Assembly: GCA_036677365.1 (NCBI GenBank)
Contig: JAVBWN010000001.1
Span: forward strand, 1-64,000
Source of the DNA: Acholeplasma sp.
Lineage (GTDB): Bacteria; Bacillota_I; Bacilli_A; Acholeplasmatales; UBA5453
Direction: 5' to 3'
DNA: 64,000 nt
A program made the translations under genes and the position numbers. The notes beneath the pieces were generated by a model, which saw nothing but the letters and a program-made list of their open reading frames with translations, was not told where the DNA came from and did no database searches. Below are positions 41,573 to 59,394 of this stretch, piece after piece. How positions within the stretch are numbered: the first letter of the stretch is position 1; each line of letters begins with the position of its first letter.

Positions 41573-42568
41573 ATGAGCGTAAAAGTAACGATTTATGAAG
41601 TAGCCTTAGCGGCAAGAGTCTCATTAGCAACCGTTTCAAGAGTATTAAACAACCCTGAAAAAGTTAAACCAGACACGAGAGAACGCGTCTTAAAAGTCAT
41701 TAAAGAACTCGGCTATCGCCCAAATGCGATCGCTAGAGGTTTGGCGAGCCGTAAAACCACCACTGTGGGTGTTTTGGTCTCTGATATCACGAGAGCTTCT
41801 GTTGCTGAAATGCTTGGGGGTATCTCCGACATCGCGATGAAGTATAGCTATTCAATCAAACTATTCTCTGCCCATGAAGATGTCAACATCATCGAACTCA
41901 TCAACGACATCGTGGCTGAACAAGTCGATGGCGTGTTGATCTTAAACGATGAGCTCGACGCATCTAGAATGAAGAAAGTCAAAGAATTATTTGACGAAAA
42001 CGAAATCCCATTCGTTTTAGCGAACGTGGTCAATGAGGATAGATCTGTACCAAGCGTATCCATCGATTATGAAAAAGCAGGGTATGAAATCACCAAATTG
42101 ATGATTGAAATGGGTAAAAAAGACATTTACATGCTTTCTACCGTGAGAAAATATTCCGTCAACGATAAGAAAGAATTGGGCTACACCAGAGCAATGCAAG
42201 AAGCACACTTAATGCCACGCGTGTTCAGAACCTCCGGGACGACATCTGTTAACCGTCAACATTTCGCAAACTTCTTCGCCGATAAGATCATCGATGGTGC
42301 CATTGGTGTCCGTGACTCGATTGCCGTATCTTTCATGAATATTGCGAATGAATCTGGCCGTTCTGTCCCTGAAATGGTATCTGTCGCAGGCTTCCAAAAT
42401 ACGAAGTATGCGCTTTTATCCCGCCCAACCTTGACATCGATTGATATCCCAGTGTATGATATCGGTGCAGTAGCCATGAGACTATTAACCAAACTCATGA
42501 ATAAAGAACAACTCGATTCACTTCAAGTTGTATTACCTCACTACATTGTGAGAAGAGAATCATTATAG
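41573..42568 (+). CDS. ccpA: Catabolite control protein A (LacI family)
   Basis: TIYEVA...VSLATVSRV, YRPNAIARGLASRKTTTVGV, YDIGAVAMRLLTKLMNKE typical of CcpA. Confidence 0.88.
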   Translation: MSVKVTIYEVALAARVSLATVSRVLNNPEKVKPDTRERVLKVIKELGYRPNAIARGLASRKTTTVGVLVSDITRASVAEMLGGISDIAMKYSYSIKLFSAHEDVNIIELINDIVAEQVDGVLILNDELDASRMKKVKELFDENEIPFVLANVVNEDRSVPSVSIDYEKAGYEITKLMIEMGKKDIYMLSTVRKYSVNDKKELGYTRAMQEAHLMPRVFRTSGTTSVNRQHFANFFADKIIDGAIGVRDSIAVSFMNIANESGRSVPEMVSVAGFQNTKYALLSRPTLTSIDIPVYDIGAVAMRLLTKLMNKEQLDSLQVVLPHYIVRRESL

Positions 42569-42574
42569 GGTCGT

Positions 42575-42772
42575 TGAAAAAAACACAGTAAGCTTAAACT
42601 TTAGAACATAGAGACTTTGTGTTAGGTGAAAACAAAGCTGGGTTTAAACTGAATTACACTTTTGGAGATCCAACAATTAAAAAGAGTGCTATGGGCAACC
42701 ATAGAACTAAGGTGGTACCACGATTGTTATAGTCGTCCTTAGATTGATTTTTAAGGACGGCTTTTTATTTTA
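42575..42772 (+). promoter_or_regulatory. T-box riboswitch (Tyr)
   Basis: AGTA box, AGAGA/GGTGAAA, specifier TAC in GAATTACAC, T-box AAGGTGGTACCACG (42709-42722), terminator. Confidence 0.93.
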
Positions 42773-49956: not shown

Positions 49957-49970
49957 TCAACTTGTTGATA

Positions 49971-50113
49971 TCTCCGAATCCACAGAGTGGGGGACCCATC
50001 CATTTCAGGGGTGAATGGCATCATTTAGATACCTAAGGATACTTAATGTCCTGAATCCGTCAGCTAACCTCATAGGAGTGATTAAGCGTATAAATCATTT
50101 ATGCGTTTTTTTT
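49971..50113 (+). promoter_or_regulatory. c-di-AMP (ydaO/yuaA) riboswitch with terminator
   Basis: CCGAATCC...GGGGGACC...GGGGTGAAT...CCTGAATCCGTCAGCTAACCTCATAGG; terminator 50084-50113. Confidence 0.92.
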
Positions 50114-54823: not shown

Positions 54824-56587
54824 CTAGCTTTTTAAGACGTCTTCTAATTGGTCAATCAATTCGTTGAAACGGTTGATGACGGCTAAGAATGTTTGCTTAT
54901 CGGTTAAATCTGCACCAGCAATCTTCGCGATGTCGACTGGATAAGCAGAACCACCTGCTTTTAACATCTTGATGTAATTGGACATGGCGTTTGGTACACC
55001 CTTTTTGACATTTTCATAAATCTTTAAGGATGCACTATAAGACGTTGCGTATTGGTATACATAGAATGGGGTATGGAATAGGTGAGGGATATAAGCCCAA
55101 ACATATTGCTTACCATTTTCTTCTGTAATGTCGATATCATAATAATGCTTGTATAAATCAATCATGATTTTAGATAAAGCACCTTCCGTGATTGGAATGC
55201 CTTTTTCGACCAGTTTGTTCGCTTCATATTCATAAGTAGCGAATAAGGTTTGACGGAAGAAGGTTGCCATGATGCCATCGATTTCATTTTCTAACAAGAC
55301 AATCTTATCTTCTTTAGAAGTTGCTTTGGATAACAAGTAATCACCAAGCAAGTGTTCATTGAAGGTGGACGCGATTTCAGCCACGAAAATGACATAATCC
55401 GCAATCGCCATCGGTTGAGCTTCATTGGAGAAAATCGTATGTGCACTGTGTCCTGCTTCGTGAGCTAGCGTAAATACAGAGTCCAAAGTTTCATCGTGGT
55501 TGAGTAAAATGAATGGGTGCCATCCATAGAAACCACTCGAATAAGCGCCAGTGCGTTTACCATCTTTAGGCAAGACATCGACAAACCCATCTTCTAAAGC
55601 ACGTTTTTCATTTTTCACAAACTCAGGGTCTAAACCTTCAAGGGCTTCAAAGAACATCTTTTTCGCATCCGCATATGGATACTTGGTGTTACTTTCTGCG
55701 AGTTTTAAGAAACGGTCATACGTATGATATTTGTCTAAACCGAGGTATTTTTGTCTGAGTTTAATGTAGCGTTTGATTGGTCCGACATTTTCATAAGCCA
55801 CATCTTTTAAGTTCATGAATACCGATACAGGGATGTTATTACCAAATAACTTTGCTTCTAAAGCGGATGCATAACCTCTGGATTTGTAAGAAGCAGATAG
55901 GTTTTGTAAAACCAAATTATAGAGGTTTGCGAACGCATTTTTATTGTCTTTATAACGTTTGAATGCGGCTTCAAAGACCAATTGACGGTCTGCTGGATTT
56001 TTTAATGTCGGCAAAATCGAGCGGTAGTTCGCGGTCGTGATTTTCATCTTTTCACCGGTCGATAACAACACCTCTTCATCGCTTCGATCGCCAACGGCTA
56101 AGGCATTATACATCGAGGTTGGGACACTAGAAATTGGTGAATGGAACGCTAAGATGCGTTCATTGTCATCCGATAAAACGTGTGCTTGTTGGTGGAATAA
56201 TTTCTCGATCACAAACTTATACGGTTGTAAACGTGGGTCTCTTTCAACAAAACTTAAAATCAAATCTTGACCAGCAGCGATGACTTCAGGTGAAAAATAA
56301 GAAGTCACTTGGCTCAATTTGGATAACTTCAACAATACGCTTTGGTATTTCGAACCCAAAACGTTGTCTCTTAAGTTCAAATCAGCCGCTAAGTGTGCAT
56401 ACGGGTACACCTTATACAATAACTGTGTGATTTCTTCTTCTAAAAGAATATAATCTCTAAACCCTTCAAAGGTCGATAATTTACCTTTAAAGGCACTAAA
56501 TTCATCTATTCTAGACTCGAATAAGTCGACATCTTTTTGCCAGGCTTCAAAATCAGGATAGAATATGGATAAATCCCATTGGCTCAT
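54824..56587 (-). CDS. pepF: Oligoendopeptidase F (M3B)
   Basis: WDLS, KRTGAYS, HEAGHSAH, AEIASTFNE, IPHLF. Confidence 0.95.
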   Translation of the reverse strand: MSQWDLSIFYPDFEAWQKDVDLFESRIDEFSAFKGKLSTFEGFRDYILLEEEITQLLYKVYPYAHLAADLNLRDNVLGSKYQSVLLKLSKLSQVTSYFSPEVIAAGQDLILSFVERDPRLQPYKFVIEKLFHQQAHVLSDDNERILAFHSPISSVPTSMYNALAVGDRSDEEVLLSTGEKMKITTANYRSILPTLKNPADRQLVFEAAFKRYKDNKNAFANLYNLVLQNLSASYKSRGYASALEAKLFGNNIPVSVFMNLKDVAYENVGPIKRYIKLRQKYLGLDKYHTYDRFLKLAESNTKYPYADAKKMFFEALEGLDPEFVKNEKRALEDGFVDVLPKDGKRTGAYSSGFYGWHPFILLNHDETLDSVFTLAHEAGHSAHTIFSNEAQPMAIADYVIFVAEIASTFNEHLLGDYLLSKATSKEDKIVLLENEIDGIMATFFRQTLFATYEYEANKLVEKGIPITEGALSKIMIDLYKHYYDIDITEENGKQYVWAYIPHLFHTPFYVYQYATSYSASLKIYENVKKGVPNAMSNYIKMLKAGGSAYPVDIAKIAGADLTDKQTFLAVINRFNELIDQLEDVLKS

Positions 56588-56821
56588 AATATCAAGTTCC
56601 TTTCAATATTAGTTAATATTATAATACAAAGTGTGGCCAATAGAAACCTACGATGTTTCATAATCCAAAAAAACACACTTGAAATCATACAATTATGTGA
56701 TATACTACTTGAAACCGTTTTCGAATATTGCTAATTAGAAATATTTCGTATATAATAATTAAGCAATCAATAAACACAAAGTGCTATAGGACAACACCTA
56801 TACCCAGAAAGGGGAAAGACC

Positions 56822-57286
56822 ATGATTACAATTTATACTACACCAAGTTGTTCGTCATGTCGAAAAGCGAAAAAGTGGTTAGAGGAACATCATTTGCCAT
56901 ATGAAGAGAAGAACTTATTCTCCAACCGTATCACAGCCAATGATATCAATTTAATGCTCAGGAATGCAGAAAATGGTTTTGAAGACATCATCTCCACCCG
57001 TTCAAAGATTTTTAAAGAACAAAATTTGGATGTAGATGCGATGTCAGTGAACCAATTAAAAGATTTCATCATCGATAATCCAAGTGTTTTAAAACGTCCA
57101 ATCATTTTAGACGATCAAAAGATGCAAGTCGGATACAACGATGAAGAAATTAGGGTCTTTATTCCAAGACGCTTAAGACAACTTGTGATGTGCGCAGACT
57201 GTCCAGCAGGCGAAACCTGTGACTATCAAAGTGCCATCAAACGTTATTTTGAAGAAATCAAAAAAGAACAACAAAAATCCTACTAA
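56822..57286 (+). CDS. spxA: Spx transcriptional regulator with C-terminal Cys extension
   Basis: PSCSSCRKAK, IISTRS, LKRPII, GYNDEEIRVF. Confidence 0.92.
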   Translation: MITIYTTPSCSSCRKAKKWLEEHHLPYEEKNLFSNRITANDINLMLRNAENGFEDIISTRSKIFKEQNLDVDAMSVNQLKDFIIDNPSVLKRPIILDDQKMQVGYNDEEIRVFIPRRLRQLVMCADCPAGETCDYQSAIKRYFEEIKKEQQKSY

Positions 57287-57325
57287 CGATGTCCATGCGA
57301 CATCGTTTTTATTTTCTATTCAGAG

Positions 57326-57377
57326 TGTAAACGATTACAGAAAAGAGATTGACACCGCTAAAAGTATCGCTTATAAT
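57326..57377 (+). promoter_or_regulatory. cre site plus perfect sigma-A promoter
   Basis: TGTAAACGATTACA (57326-57339); TTGACA(57349-57354)-17-TATAAT(57372-57377). Confidence 0.85.
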
Positions 57378-57402
57378 GTGGTTGGTATCGTCATCCAATA
57401 CT

Positions 57403-57474
57403 ATGTCAATCGCAAACCTAGAGCAATCTAGTGACGCAAAGCTATAGGGTCTTTATGAGACAGCCAGTTGCCAT
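57403..57474 (+). ncRNA. c-di-GMP-I (GEMM) riboswitch aptamer, variant with C at position 20
   Basis: CGCAAACCTAGAGCAATCTAGTGACGCAAAGCTATAGGGTCT...GACAGCCAGTTGCC: P2 with a GCAA tetraloop, GACGCAAAG junction and P3. Confidence 0.88.
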
Positions 57475-57504
57475 TTCAGAAGCATTTGTGTGGTAACTTC
57501 ATTT

Positions 57505-57535
57505 AAAGTCTACACAAATGGTGGGGACTTTTTTT
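57505..57535 (+). terminator. Riboswitch expression-platform terminator
   Basis: AAAGTCTACAC-AAATG-GTGGGGACTTTTTTT; competes with the antiterminator 57483-57493/57510-57520. Confidence 0.7.
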
Positions 57536-57617
57536 ATTGGAAAGTCAAAGATTTACATAGATCATATTGATGGCTTCAAATGATTTATGACACACCCCTC
57601 ATAGATGTGAAAACATC

Positions 57618-57648
57618 AAAAAACCACAGGCGGATGACCTGTGGTTTT
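57618..57648. terminator. Bidirectional terminator at the 3' end of guaC
   Basis: AAAACCACAGG...CCTGTGGTTTT. Confidence 0.8.
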
Positions 57649-57653
57649 CTATT

Positions 57654-58736
57654 TTAGTGCCTTGTGTAAATGTCGTTATATTGTCTGTGTACTCGAATGA
57701 ATGTCGTACACTTGGACAAATCTTTGAGTGTTTTCGCACCCACATAAGTACAGGTCGAACGGATACCACCTAAGATGTCTTTCACGGATGTGTCGACATT
57801 GCCTTTGAATGGAATCTTAACGGTTCTACCCTCTGAACTGCGGTAATCCGCAACTTCACCTTTGTGTTTGATCATGGCCGTAGAAGAACTCATCCCGTAA
57901 AACTCAACGAACTTTCTCACTTCATAAATCGGTTCAAAGGTTTTCATATCCTTTTGGTGGGTATCGTGGTACTCGGTAATGACTTTACCGCCACCCTCTG
58001 AGTGTCCAGCAAACATGCCACCAAGCATCACGAAGTCTGCGCCAGCCCCAAAGGCTTTCGCAACATCCCCAGGACAAGTACAGCCACCATCGGAGATGAT
58101 GTGTGCGCCTAAACCATGGGCAGCATCTGCACATTCGATGATGGCAGACAGTTGTGGGTAACCCACGCCCGTTTGAATACGCGTGGTACATACAGACCCC
58201 GGTCCGATACCGACTTTAACGATATCAACCCCACGCAGGATCAGTTCTTGAGTCATATCGGCAGTGACCACATTTCCAGCGATGATGACGTGTTTTGGAT
58301 AATCTTTTCTCACCTTGGACACAAATTCACCAAAAGCCTCTGAGTAGCCATTGGCCACATCGATGCAGATGAATTTTAAAGATGGGTTATTTTCTATGGT
58401 TGTTTTTAGGTTTAAATAGTCTTCTTTAGAAGTCCCAGTAGATACTGCGAAGTATTCAGGGTTCAAGGTAGGTAATGCTTCAGTGATTTGAGTCGGGGTG
58501 TAATTTTTCACCAAACATGTGAATAATTGACGTTCTCCCAAAGCTTTCGCCATTTCAAGGGTCCCCACACCATCCATGTTCGCTGCCATGATTGGCACGC
58601 CAGTCCATGTTTGGGCGGAATGTTTAAAAGTGTACGTACGATTCAAATCGACTTCTTTTCGTGAAGCGAGGGTCGAACGTTTTGGTCTAATCAATACATC
58701 GCTAAAATCTAACTTTTCATCGAGTTCAATACGCAT
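57654..58736 (-). CDS. guaC: GMP reductase (E. coli/eukaryote-like type)
   Basis: MRIE...[43 protein letters not shown]. Confidence 0.96.
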
Positions 58737-58845
58737 ATATAGGCCTCCCATTAAATTCCATTAACAGTATATACGATTTAGTCCGATTTGTGTGAGGTTT
58801 TCTAAATATAACGGTTTCATGCAAATTAAAAGACCCGTCAAGGGT

Positions 58846-59394
58846 CTAGTTTTTGGTCTTGTAAATACGTTCGCTCTTACGCATCGCTGGTTTGTTTTCG
58901 ATGTGGTGTGTTTCTAAAAAGTGTTCAAAACATTTCTTGCCTAATTCGTAGTTATCGACTTCATATTCCAATTCATAATCGACGTTCCCTGAATATTCAA
59001 TCTTATCAAAGAAGAGTTCGCCATCTTTGTAAGGGGTGGATACACGGTAATTATCCAATGAACCAATCAACTTGACGTCACAATCGATGTCGAAATAGTC
59101 TTTGGTGTTGAATCCAGCTTCAATCATTTGTAAAGCTTGGGCCTCATCTAAAAGCACATGTTGTTCAAATGCCCCTTGATCACTGTGGGATTTGAGTGTG
59201 ACTTTAAAGTAGTTATTGTGCTTCTTACGAATTCTTAATACGGTTTTTTGTTTTCTGAAAAACAAGGATTCCGAATCAAAGTAGTAGTTGGTTTGTTTGA
59301 ATATGTTGTTGTCCAACTCAAACAAACGAATCAGTTCGTTGTATTGTGTTTCAGTTAATGGCGTTTTAAATTCGATTTCGACATTCGTCTTCAT
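58846..59394 (-). CDS. CYTH domain protein (YjbK-like)
   Basis: EIEFK, QTNYYFD, LRIR, YELEYE. Confidence 0.9.
   Translation of the reverse strand: MKTNVEIEFKTPLTETQYNELIRLFELDNNIFKQTNYYFDSESLFFRKQKTVLRIRKKHNNYFKVTLKSHSDQGAFEQHVLLDEAQALQMIEAGFNTKDYFDIDCDVKLIGSLDNYRVSTPYKDGELFFDKIEYSGNVDYELEYEVDNYELGKKCFEHFLETHHIENKPAMRKSERIYKTKN

Follow-up and report, generated by a model that had tools for sequence, protein, structure and literature searches.

A conserved non-coding RNA unit with a predicted GEMM-I riboswitch gate between the spx-like and guaC genes of Paracholeplasma

A putatively riboswitch-gated RNA unit in the spx–guaC gap

We analyzed the gap between an spx-like gene and the convergent guaC gene in a 64,000-nucleotide (nt) stretch of Acholeplasma sp. 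DNA (assembly GCA_036677365.1, contig JAVBWN010000001.1, positions 1 to 64,000), hereafter the window, where an initial annotation had proposed a cyclic-dinucleotide riboswitch that switches on a non-coding RNA. Between positions 57326 and 57650 this gap holds a palindrome resembling a catabolite-responsive element (cre), a promoter, an aptamer of the GEMM-I class, which is named after cyclic di-GMP (c-di-GMP), three competing helices and ~115 nt of hairpins. Our analyses indicate that the locus is a real, conserved, structured and non-coding RNA unit gated by a riboswitch, the gating being a computed one. The parts of the unit, their conservation and covariation and the absence of coding potential were all observed by comparing homologous sequences. 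We consider it possible, at slightly less than an even chance, that this is a self-contained unit for a ~270-nt non-coding RNA whose 3' half would be made only when the GEMM-I aptamer has bound its ligand, and whose effector would be a base-pairing regulatory RNA.

The features listed by the initial annotation all lay where it had placed them or no more than 1 nt away. From 5' to 3', the unit consists of:

57326..57339, no strand assigned: cre-like, LacI-family operator-like palindrome TGTAAACGATTACA, 14 nt
57349..57377, + strand: sigma-70-type promoter, TTGACA-17-TATAAT, 12/12 consensus match
57384..57402, + strand: 5' hairpin GGUAU/AUACU with loop CGUCAUCCA, 100% of alignment cells paired, 2 pairs varying on one side
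57401..57475, + strand: GEMM-I (c-di-GMP-I, RF01051) aptamer, from the Rfam covariance model
57466..57498, + strand: anti-antiterminator helix A:B, AGUUGCCAU with GUGGUAACU plus a 4-bp inner stem, 9+4 bp, -11.5 kcal/mol (RNAfold)
57483..57520, + strand: antiterminator helix B:C, 11+4 bp, -13.4 kcal/mol
57505..57535, + strand: regulated intrinsic terminator C:D, AAAGUCU-A-CAC/GUG-G-GGACUUU, stem 57505-57531 followed by U7, -8.9 kcal/mol
57526..57546, + strand: helix D:E, GACUUUUUU/GGAAAGUC, -6.9 kcal/mol
57556..57589, + strand: downstream hairpin 1, CAUAGAUCAU...AUGAUUUAUG, inner UUGA/UCAA, loop UGGCU, with covarying pairs
57590..57603, + strand: C-rich linker ACACACCCCUCAUA, unpaired in the minimum free energy (MFE) fold and in the consensus fold
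57604..57617, + strand: downstream hairpin 2, GAUGU-GAAA-ACAUC, stem invariant and loop variable
57618..57651, both strands: bidirectional intrinsic terminator common to the unit and guaC, from a terminator scan

Its neighbours, with family labels taken from the earlier reader, are:

56822..57286, + strand: spx-like gene, an open reading frame (ORF) of 154 amino acids (aa), ArsC/Spx family
57285-57307, + strand: terminator of the spx-like gene, from the terminator scan, upstream of the unit
57654..58736, - strand: guaC, a convergent ORF, GMP reductase

The stop codon of guaC starts at 57654, and its probable start codon is that of MRIELD at 58736, as in orthologues. Using the spx-like gene as a synteny anchor, we compared the locus in seven sequences from five species: the source assembly of the window (G000; 1.97 Mb, 99.86% complete), G004, G005 (P. 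vituli strain 92-19), G007 and G009, together with L118, a variant of the strain, and L119, which is G009-like, both recovered from a metagenome scan with the terminator core. Three further contig loci (L038-L040) were duplicates of G004, G007 and G005 and added nothing. When folded as a whole, the 277 nt of the RNA gave z = -3.83, with none of 200 shuffles as good; the downstream 125 nt gave z = -4.19 (0/200 shuffles equal).

The switch helices and their predicted logic

The GEMM aptamer of the initial annotation was confirmed by Rfam, in which RF01051 scored 53.9 bits (gathering score, 35 bits; E 9.5e-8 over the whole window). The orthologues scored 53.8-57.4 bits, a range that reaches 64.1 bits with the GEMM-I copy of another genome, G002. 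Both aptamer hairpins align to the model, the first being capped by a GCAA tetraloop (57423-57426). The distal part of the second hairpin has 3 nt against 15 in the model, and a tetraloop receptor is unreadable from sequence.

Folding also recovered the three mutually exclusive pairings that had been proposed, namely A:B, B:C and C:D. The core of A:B joins AGTTGCCA (57466-57473), which belongs to the 3' strand of the second aptamer hairpin, to TGGTAACT (57491-57498), and RNAfold extends it to 57466-57474 with 57490-57498. In B:C, CATTTGTGTGG (57483-57493) pairs with CTACACAAATG (57510-57520), and one compensatory change from A-U to G-C was found in G007 (alignment columns 103/144). The C:D terminator was missed by a simple consensus scan because its stem holds an internal mismatch; it is kept in the riboswitch-bearing sequences, and its 5' half is gone in G005. 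Both OFF-state helices (A:B and C:D) are present in 6/6 riboswitch-bearing sequences with one-sided changes only, including a single change from G-U to A-U in A:B.

Folding of the growing transcript showed A:B to be the first of these helices to form, once 57490-57498 is made. Unconstrained folds up to the U-tract gave -35.9 kcal/mol for the terminator state and -36.5 kcal/mol for the antiterminator state. When the aptamer pairs of G000 were enforced, the best fold contained the antiterminator (-33.5 kcal/mol) and adding the terminator cost 4.1 kcal/mol; the same constrained test in G004, G009, L119 and G007 favoured the antiterminator by 3.1-7.0 kcal/mol. These models predict a transcriptional ON switch in which ligand would lead to read-through, and the same logic holds in 5/5 folded riboswitch-bearing orthologues, in computational agreement with the direction of switching that the initial annotation had put forward.

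The binding pocket and the likely ligand

In the published accounts of the Vc2 riboswitch, c-di-GMP is contacted by G20, A47 and C92, to which G21 and C46 are neighbours, and a distance of 27 nt separates G20 from A47. Taking G21, C46 and A47 as the named pocket residues and the 27-nt spacing as a guide on the Rfam alignment, we placed the G20-equivalent directly 5' of the closing G-C pair of the first hairpin, at 57411. This position is a C, the A47-equivalent (57438) is an A and a C follows the second hairpin (57471-57472), so that the G20/A47/C92 triad of the Vc2 type is not complete here. Among 30 GEMM-I copies of the order (31 5' halves were listed and one pattern artefact was removed), 26 have G at the G20-equivalent and two have A; the two copies with C are both the spx–guaC element. 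Within the gap itself, C is found in G000, L118, G004, G009 and L119, and G in the G007 orthologue and in the copy of a further genome, G002. The C-bearing aptamer is 71/72 identical between G000 and G009, two genomes that share 41% of guaC four-fold sites (n=164), which argues that it is under strong selection.

A at position 20 is carried by GEMM-Ib, which is associated with 3'3'-cyclic GMP-AMP (cGAMP), and by the Vc2 mutant G20A, which still bound c-di-GMP at 53 nM and gained cGAMP binding (PMC6140456); our element has the same fold, but C. A literature search on G20C and c-di-GMP, with a molecular-dynamics study among its matches, returned no binding data for C at G20. The element has the GEMM-I fold, but a specificity for c-di-GMP is putative. 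c-di-GMP remains the most likely ligand because the genome has 20 GGDEF-domain matches and because its other two GEMM-I copies lie at a GGDEF gene or beside a GGDEF-EAL gene: one (L001, G000:C8:19316-22392) precedes a secreted-looking pair of 246 and 231 aa adjoining a GGDEF-EAL gene, and the other (L002, G000:C7:7438-10512) precedes a 306-aa GGDEF protein, which would put a c-di-GMP riboswitch ahead of the gene for a c-di-GMP synthase. The genome thus holds 20 GGDEF-domain matches but 3 GEMM-I riboswitches.

The survey also yielded several separate observations. One GGDEF frame of G000 (C20:26421-26882) has an in-frame TGA. The two copies with A at the G20-equivalent, as in cGAMP-type GEMM-Ib, are found in L013 at ~1500 (G049) and L031 at ~1500 on the minus strand (G045), each with an ORF of 235-249 aa within 30-37 nt downstream. 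Tandem GEMM-I matches (2-3 within 150-450 nt) occur at G037:C1:1397827-1398142, G056:C1:537196-537630, G042:C22:35017-35226, G060:C8:27898-28105, G008:C1:1034511-1034695 and G014:C11:12887-13043.

The read-through domain

A consensus fold was obtained with RNAalifold, and base pairs were counted over the seven sequences. The ON-state structure had 95.2% of 503 cells paired, compared with 35-42% when partners were slid, and contained 6 pairs with changes on both sides (0-2 with slid partners; 0/500 shuffles). Three of these pairs are in hairpin 1, one is in the antiterminator and two, which come from the decayed aptamer row of G005, are to be discounted. The three pairs of hairpin 1 changed on both sides in 5 cells, and this hairpin is shorter but intact in G009 and L119. 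Helix D:E, which in the read-through RNA takes up the 3' half of the terminator together with its U-tract, had 98% of cells paired in the seven sequences, G005 included. The core of the C-rich linker, CAC-N-(C)CCCU, is conserved in 7/7 sequences. Comparison with relatives, which had been suggested as a check on the chain of hairpins drawn in the initial annotation, therefore gave a mixed outcome: the hairpin at 57556-57589 covaries and GATGT-GAAA-ACATC stands, but TATGA-CACACCCC-TCATA is not conserved: it appears neither in the MFE fold nor in the consensus fold, clashes with the basal pairs of 57556-57589 and is impossible in G005. A permissive Rfam scan of the 3' domain returned chance-level matches only (RsaJ, BSnc120 and rli40, at 12-14 bits against cut-offs of at least 100).

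The two ends of the RNA may also meet. The loop core CAUCC of the 5' hairpin is invariant in 7/7 sequences, and UCAUCC in this loop (57391-57396) is perfectly complementary to GGAUGA in the loop of the shared terminator (57632-57637). The complementarity is 6 nt long in 5/7 sequences and differs in G007 (5 nt) and G005 (7 nt); a match of at least 6 nt arose in 144/20000 shuffled loop sets, in a comparison that was post hoc and without covariation. Pairing of the two loops is possible in the full-length RNA only.

Absence of a downstream coding sequence

In agreement with the initial annotation, no ORF preceded by a Shine-Dalgarno (SD) sequence was found 3' of the aptamer, nor in any of the seven homologues when all frames of at least 8 aa were listed. 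The small ORFs of the homologues disagree in start codon, frame and C-terminus: the longest read-through frame (57580-57657) begins with ATG, TTG or nothing and has a C-terminus that shifts with the length of an A-run, and a frame of 21 aa is interrupted in both L118 and G004 by indels of a single nucleotide. These data bear on the idea that the riboswitch controls a tiny protein, encoded by one of the frames of 21-26 aa at 57490-57570, 57518-57583 or 57580-57657, to which we assign an almost negligible probability. The three frames do exist, and Table 1 of a C. difficile review contains genes for a 'small hypothetical protein' after c-di-GMP-I riboswitches (PMC11477304); yet all three frames lack an SD sequence and a consistent start, and indels shift the reading frames in L118, G004, G009 and G005, giving different C-termini.

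Two other candidates were rejected. The initial annotation had asked whether the interval is the remnant of a lost gene; it is not derived from the 116-aa ORF that occupies this gap in G001 and G003, for which the best tblastn match in six intervals had an E of 0.55, with none elsewhere in the genome of G000. A type I toxin on the opposite strand was likewise discarded, because neither frame there, 57309-57398 (29 aa, 5' of the RNA) or 57599-57769 (56 aa, out of frame within the 3' end of guaC), is hydrophobic-toxin-like.

To place the element among its kind, the next same-strand ORF was recorded for 26 distinct GEMM-I copies of the order, after removal of one pattern artefact. An SD-preceded ORF of at least 60 aa follows within 185 nt in 18/26 and at 285-865 nt in 3/26, and the remaining 5/26 have no SD-preceded ORF within 1200 nt, four of these five lying in the spx–guaC gap. 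A GEMM-I riboswitch lacking a downstream ORF is atypical for the order. Three GEMM-I copies from other genera, L022 (G034:C3:342840-342912), L024 (G053) and L029 (G043), have no SD-preceded ORF within 1200 nt or have one only at 615/865 nt, and may be more cases of a riboswitch leading into non-coding RNA.

Distribution of the unit and its aptamer-less orthologue in P. vituli

The adjacency of spx and guaC was found at 5/80 spx loci fetched from Acholeplasmatales-like genomes, all in one genus, Paracholeplasma, across which the gap has at least four different contents. The unit is present with its aptamer in G000, G004, G009 and G007 and without it in P. vituli. A covariance model of the 3' domain found one strong copy in each of these five genomes, that is, in 5/10 Paracholeplasma genomes and 0/12 other genomes of the family, two weak matches (E 0.004-0.006) being treated as noise. 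In G002 the gap (L034:900-1520, identical to L041) is occupied by a distinct GEMM-I (64.1 bits), which has another promoter, a terminator of its own (GCCAGCA...UGCUGGCUUUUU) and, downstream, ~330 nt of strongly folding non-coding sequence with no same-strand ORF above 28 aa. This downstream region was rejected as a homologue, because the similarity is confined to the aptamer (61-67 nt) and to the guaC end; the G002 read-through RNA likewise ends on the terminator of guaC, a different one. In G001 (L037) and G003 (L035:1960-2460) the gap lacks a riboswitch and encodes the 116-aa ORF, a predicted membrane protein with a good SD sequence; its leader of ~150 nt is GC-richer and matched no Rfam family at gathering score. 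In G008 the gap content is absent and guaC is not at the spx site.

Identity to G000 was calculated for each part of the unit in each species:

guaC four-fold sites (n = 150-164): G004 64%, G009 41%, G007 41%, G005 45%
Aptamer: G004 99%, G009 99%, G007 89%, G005 42%
Expression platform: G004 94%, G009 84%, G007 70%, G005 45%
5' hairpin: G004 100%, G009 95%, G007 73%, G005 75%
3' domain: G004 95%, G009 67%, G007 78%, G005 66%
Terminator: G004 100%, G009 100%, G007 100%, G005 97%

No match reaching the GEMM-I gathering score was found in the G005 interval, where, judged by identity, the aptamer and platform appear to have drifted to the level of neutral sites (42-45% vs 45%). G005 retains the promoter, the cre-like box, the 5' hairpin and the effector domain, and its whole RNA folds with z = -5.3. 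Since P. vituli keeps the promoter, the 5' hairpin, the covarying 3' hairpins and the terminator, the RNA appears to have a function beyond ligand sensing. Loss of the aptamer in P. vituli is a simpler reading than independent gain elsewhere, because the distant G002 also has a GEMM-I in this gap.

P. vituli could also be taken as the endpoint of decay, the unit being an orphan riboswitch on its way out, with no regulation left and with hairpins that are the guaC terminator region plus spacer. The patchy, narrow range of the unit, the missing aptamer of G005, the C at the G20-equivalent and the variable content of the gap would all fit. We regard this as quite improbable, however: the aptamer is 99% identical where guaC four-fold sites are at 41-64%, the perfect promoter and its spacing are conserved, compensatory changes occur in the antiterminator and in hairpin 1, and the parts of the G005 unit outside the aptamer are well above its decayed aptamer in identity.

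The same orthologue speaks to whether the RNA could be a ligand buffer, in which an abundant aptamer RNA would soak up the second messenger and the downstream part would only stabilise it. A consensus promoter, the excess of GGDEF matches over riboswitches and the presence of an aptamer in an ORF-less RNA, as in the Bdellovibrio merRNA (PMC3627812), are what such a sponge might show. Against this, G005 retains the RNA despite losing the aptamer, a regulated terminator with conserved alternative helices would be superfluous, and, if the G20A data (PMC6140456) are a guide, a C at the G20-equivalent would probably weaken ligand binding and not strengthen it. Buffering is accordingly highly improbable.

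The terminator shared with guaC

The bidirectional terminator that the initial annotation had drawn against the guaC stop codon was detected on both strands, at 57620-57648(+) and 57651-57617(-), with the loop CGGAUGA at 57631-57637. It is the most conserved part of the unit, with 33/33 nt identical in G004, G009 and G007 and 32/33 in G005. The guaC genes of G002 and of G001/G003 end on unrelated terminators, and because other species' guaC use other terminators, the shared terminator belongs to the RNA unit and not to guaC.

An explanation built on this overlap is antisense control of guaC. Read-through would add ~45 nt complementary to the 3' end of guaC mRNA (the shared terminator and tail), and the duplex would expose this mRNA to RNase III or remove its protective 3' hairpin, tying c-di-GMP to the guanine-nucleotide pool. 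The position of the terminator on both strands, abutting the guaC stop, is as this requires; a constraint acting on two strands would make the terminator, loop included, the best-conserved piece, as observed; the terminator goes with the RNA unit; and the non-homologous GEMM-I read-through RNA of G002 also ends on the guaC terminator. RNase III is present in the genome (236 bits, above cut-off), and the + strand U-tract, UUUUCUAUUUU, is weaker than that of the - strand, so that some transcription into guaC antisense is conceivable. However, any convergent pair with a common terminator overlaps in this way, and the adjacency is inherited synteny in one genus (the 5/80 loci above), not an independent association. 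Antisense control would also leave the covariation of hairpin 1, the linker, the D:E helix and the 5' hairpin unexplained, and G005 keeps the RNA without the sensor, so that GMP logic is unnecessary for its retention. We therefore consider guaC antisense control a serious alternative but an unlikely one.

A more elaborate possibility combines several of these features. The RNA might be modular and assembled by its ligand, with a C-pocket (the G20- and C92-equivalents) that would read both guanines of c-di-GMP and gate the joining of the 5' hairpin to the 3' domain, a kissing loop between UCAUCC and GGAUGA, and a 3' end that would pair with guaC mRNA, P. vituli being the natural sensor-deleted form. 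We offer this as speculation and hold it to be decidedly improbable.

Promoter and putative carbon-source control

The perfect TTGACA-17-TATAAT promoter of the initial annotation was recovered as the sole 12/12 match (57349-57377) of seven promoter-like sites in 56500-58900, and transcription would start near 57384. Its -35 and -10 hexamers and their 17-nt spacing are conserved in the five species, and the letters of the spacer vary. The cre-like box lies 9 nt 5' of the -35 box, with its centre ~51 nt ahead of the predicted start, and is kept in 7/7 homologues; the G005 version, TGTAATCGTTTACA, has 2 substitutions and still satisfies the consensus. HPr kinase is present in the genome, and the top CcpA-like protein scored 292 bits, below the equivalog cut-off of 442 bits. 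The strict cre motif was not enriched genome-wide, with 12 matches against 2-12 in five simulated genomes. The box fits the cre consensus as the initial annotation had claimed, and its dependence on CcpA is putative. A second copy of the 14-mer TGTAAACGATTACA was found at G000:C27:22651 (L130:2152-2165), overlapping the -35 region of a promoter. To judge from sequence, carbon-source control of the unit's promoter is likely.

The promoter at C27:22651 lies between another LacI-family gene, different from that of the CcpA-like protein, and a polysaccharide-utilisation-like operon. This operon encodes a sugar-binding protein, a 1022-aa protein without a Pfam match and an 838-aa protein in which three stretches match CBM_4_9. 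The leader of this operon contains two copies of a further repeated box, GAAACCGATTTCC. Two other RNA elements lie on the + strand of the window itself: a c-di-AMP riboswitch at 49962-50093 (79.2 bits) and a T-box leader at 42565-42743 (95.8 bits), which begins 3 nt past the gene of the top-scoring CcpA-like LacI-family protein (41582-42562).

Expression and target searches

We examined assembled contigs from four metatranscriptome runs of three studies, with no DNA run alongside. Over 56800-58800, contigs covered spx up to 57272-57283 and guaC from 57657-57671, and none lay over 57336-57603; as such contigs cannot show small or rare RNAs, this is at most a weak hint and was given no weight on either side of the question of expression.

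Hfq was not found in the 99.86%-complete genome. In such an Hfq-less genome, the layout of the 3' domain, in which unpaired C-rich sequence is flanked by hairpins and followed by a terminator, presumably resembles that of the base-pairing small RNAs (sRNAs) of low-GC Gram-positive bacteria. A scan for targets of the C-rich linker gave 221 seed matches, and most of the best 40 duplexes were away from start codons. The best candidate located at a ribosome-binding site, C20:24410, has an 11-nt perfect complement upstream of a gene for 247 aa, the product of which resembles a nucleotidyltransferase on visual inspection. This candidate was rejected as a chance match, because the duplex energy of -23.8 kcal/mol, shared by G000 and G004, falls to between -14.2 and -15.7 kcal/mol in G007, G009 and G005. 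Conservation of pairing was examined for this candidate alone.

Discussion

The evidence assembled here can be accommodated by a mechanism in which we infer the transcription start, the ligand, the ON response and a trans-acting mode of action. Transcription would start near 57384 from a consensus promoter carrying a carbon-source-type operator, the cre-like box. When ligand is scarce, the 3' strand of the second aptamer hairpin would pair with 57490-57498 and leave 57505-57531 free to form the terminator, giving an RNA of ~150 nt. When ligand, most likely c-di-GMP, is bound, the aptamer would retain that strand, 57483-57520 would form the antiterminator and polymerase would read through, after which GGAAAGUC (57539-57546) would take the 3' half of the terminator. 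The long RNA would thereby gain an effector domain made up of hairpin 1 with its covarying pairs, the unpaired C-rich linker, hairpin 2 and the terminator that guaC also uses; the loop of this terminator could kiss the 5' hairpin loop. This domain would regulate by base pairing, independently of Hfq, and its most probable seed would be the C-rich linker, directed at ribosome-binding sites rich in purines.

Several points weigh against this proposal and account for the caution with which we make it. The start site is predicted, as are the two 3' ends and the response to ligand. With C at the G20-equivalent, the sequence assures neither the ligand nor binding. The antiterminator state is marginally stabler in unconstrained folds, so the switch would depend on kinetics. 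The comparison comprises seven sequences from five close species, in which covariation rests on few events, and the percentage paired is inflated because the structure was taken from one of the aligned sequences. The invariant part of the C-rich core is only ~4 nt, and the sole target candidate located at a ribosome-binding site is complementary only in G000 and G004. Finally, the external neutral baseline is ambiguous, spx four-fold sites being 65-86% identical (n ~40) against 66-95% for the 3' domain; because spx four-fold sites are highly identical too, the contrast within G005 is the stronger argument.

Riboswitch-gated non-coding RNAs, those gated by c-di-GMP included, are a known arrangement, as RCd11/RCd12, merRNA and the Vc2-terminated sRNAs precede the present case. 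The rarity that the initial annotation saw in a riboswitch without a protein gene was overstated, cases from C. difficile, Bdellovibrio and Vibrio being in print. The B12-riboswitch RNAs Rli55 of Listeria and EutX of Enterococcus are reportedly terminated by their ligand (OFF), their effector domain sequestering an ANTAR response regulator. Like these two, our unit is a riboswitch with its own promoter that would choose between a short terminated RNA and a long effector-bearing one; unlike them, it has another ligand and is predicted to be ON, and no motif of the type that binds ANTAR regulators was identified in it.

In C. difficile, c-di-GMP-I riboswitches precede the antisense RNAs RCd11 and RCd12, and an orphan lies between CD2517 and CD2517.1 (PMC11477304, Table 1). 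Our unit resembles these in that, in a genome of Gram-positive lineage, what comes after the GEMM-I is a non-coding RNA and not a protein gene. RCd11 and RCd12 are antitoxins of type I toxin–antitoxin modules, whereas no small toxin ORF lies opposite our unit; the downstream RNA here is structured, covarying and convergent on guaC, and the sequences are unrelated. The merRNA of Bdellovibrio bacteriovorus, described as a massively expressed 445-nt RNA and proposed as a c-di-GMP store (PMC3627812), shares with our unit a c-di-GMP riboswitch inside an sRNA, the lack of a conserved downstream ORF and restriction to a lineage; the conserved terminator/antiterminator gate and a sister species that keeps the RNA without the aptamer set ours apart. 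In the Vc2-terminated sRNAs of Vibrio cholerae, binding of c-di-GMP to GEMM-I sets the abundance of a non-coding RNA (bioRxiv 10.1101/617340), and there the aptamer is 3' and protects upstream RNA from decay, unlike ours, which lies close to the 5' end and has a predicted effect on termination.

New in the present case are the selected C at the G20-equivalent and the complementarity between the 5' loop and the terminator loop. Both had been missed by the initial annotation, as had the riboswitch-less P. vituli orthologue and the GACUUUUUU/GGAAAGUC helix. Literature searches by title and abstract found nothing on RNA for Paracholeplasma and nothing on riboswitches for Acholeplasma with c-di-GMP. 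To our knowledge, the routes of c-di-GMP into post-transcriptional networks are poorly known beyond a few models, and riboswitch-gated non-coding RNAs still number in single figures.

At ~270 nt the unit is a compact test case, set in a wall-less lineage that has a small genome and no Hfq but 20 GGDEF matches, and P. vituli provides a natural control in the form of a sensor-less RNA. The naturally selected C at G20 would bear on how GEMM-I riboswitches tune ligand choice and affinity. The locus also raises a possible link between the messenger and GMP reductase. Should the RNA prove to be modular and ligand-assembled, its sensor and effector would be separable, and the second messenger would be coupled to GMP reductase and thus to its own precursor pool.

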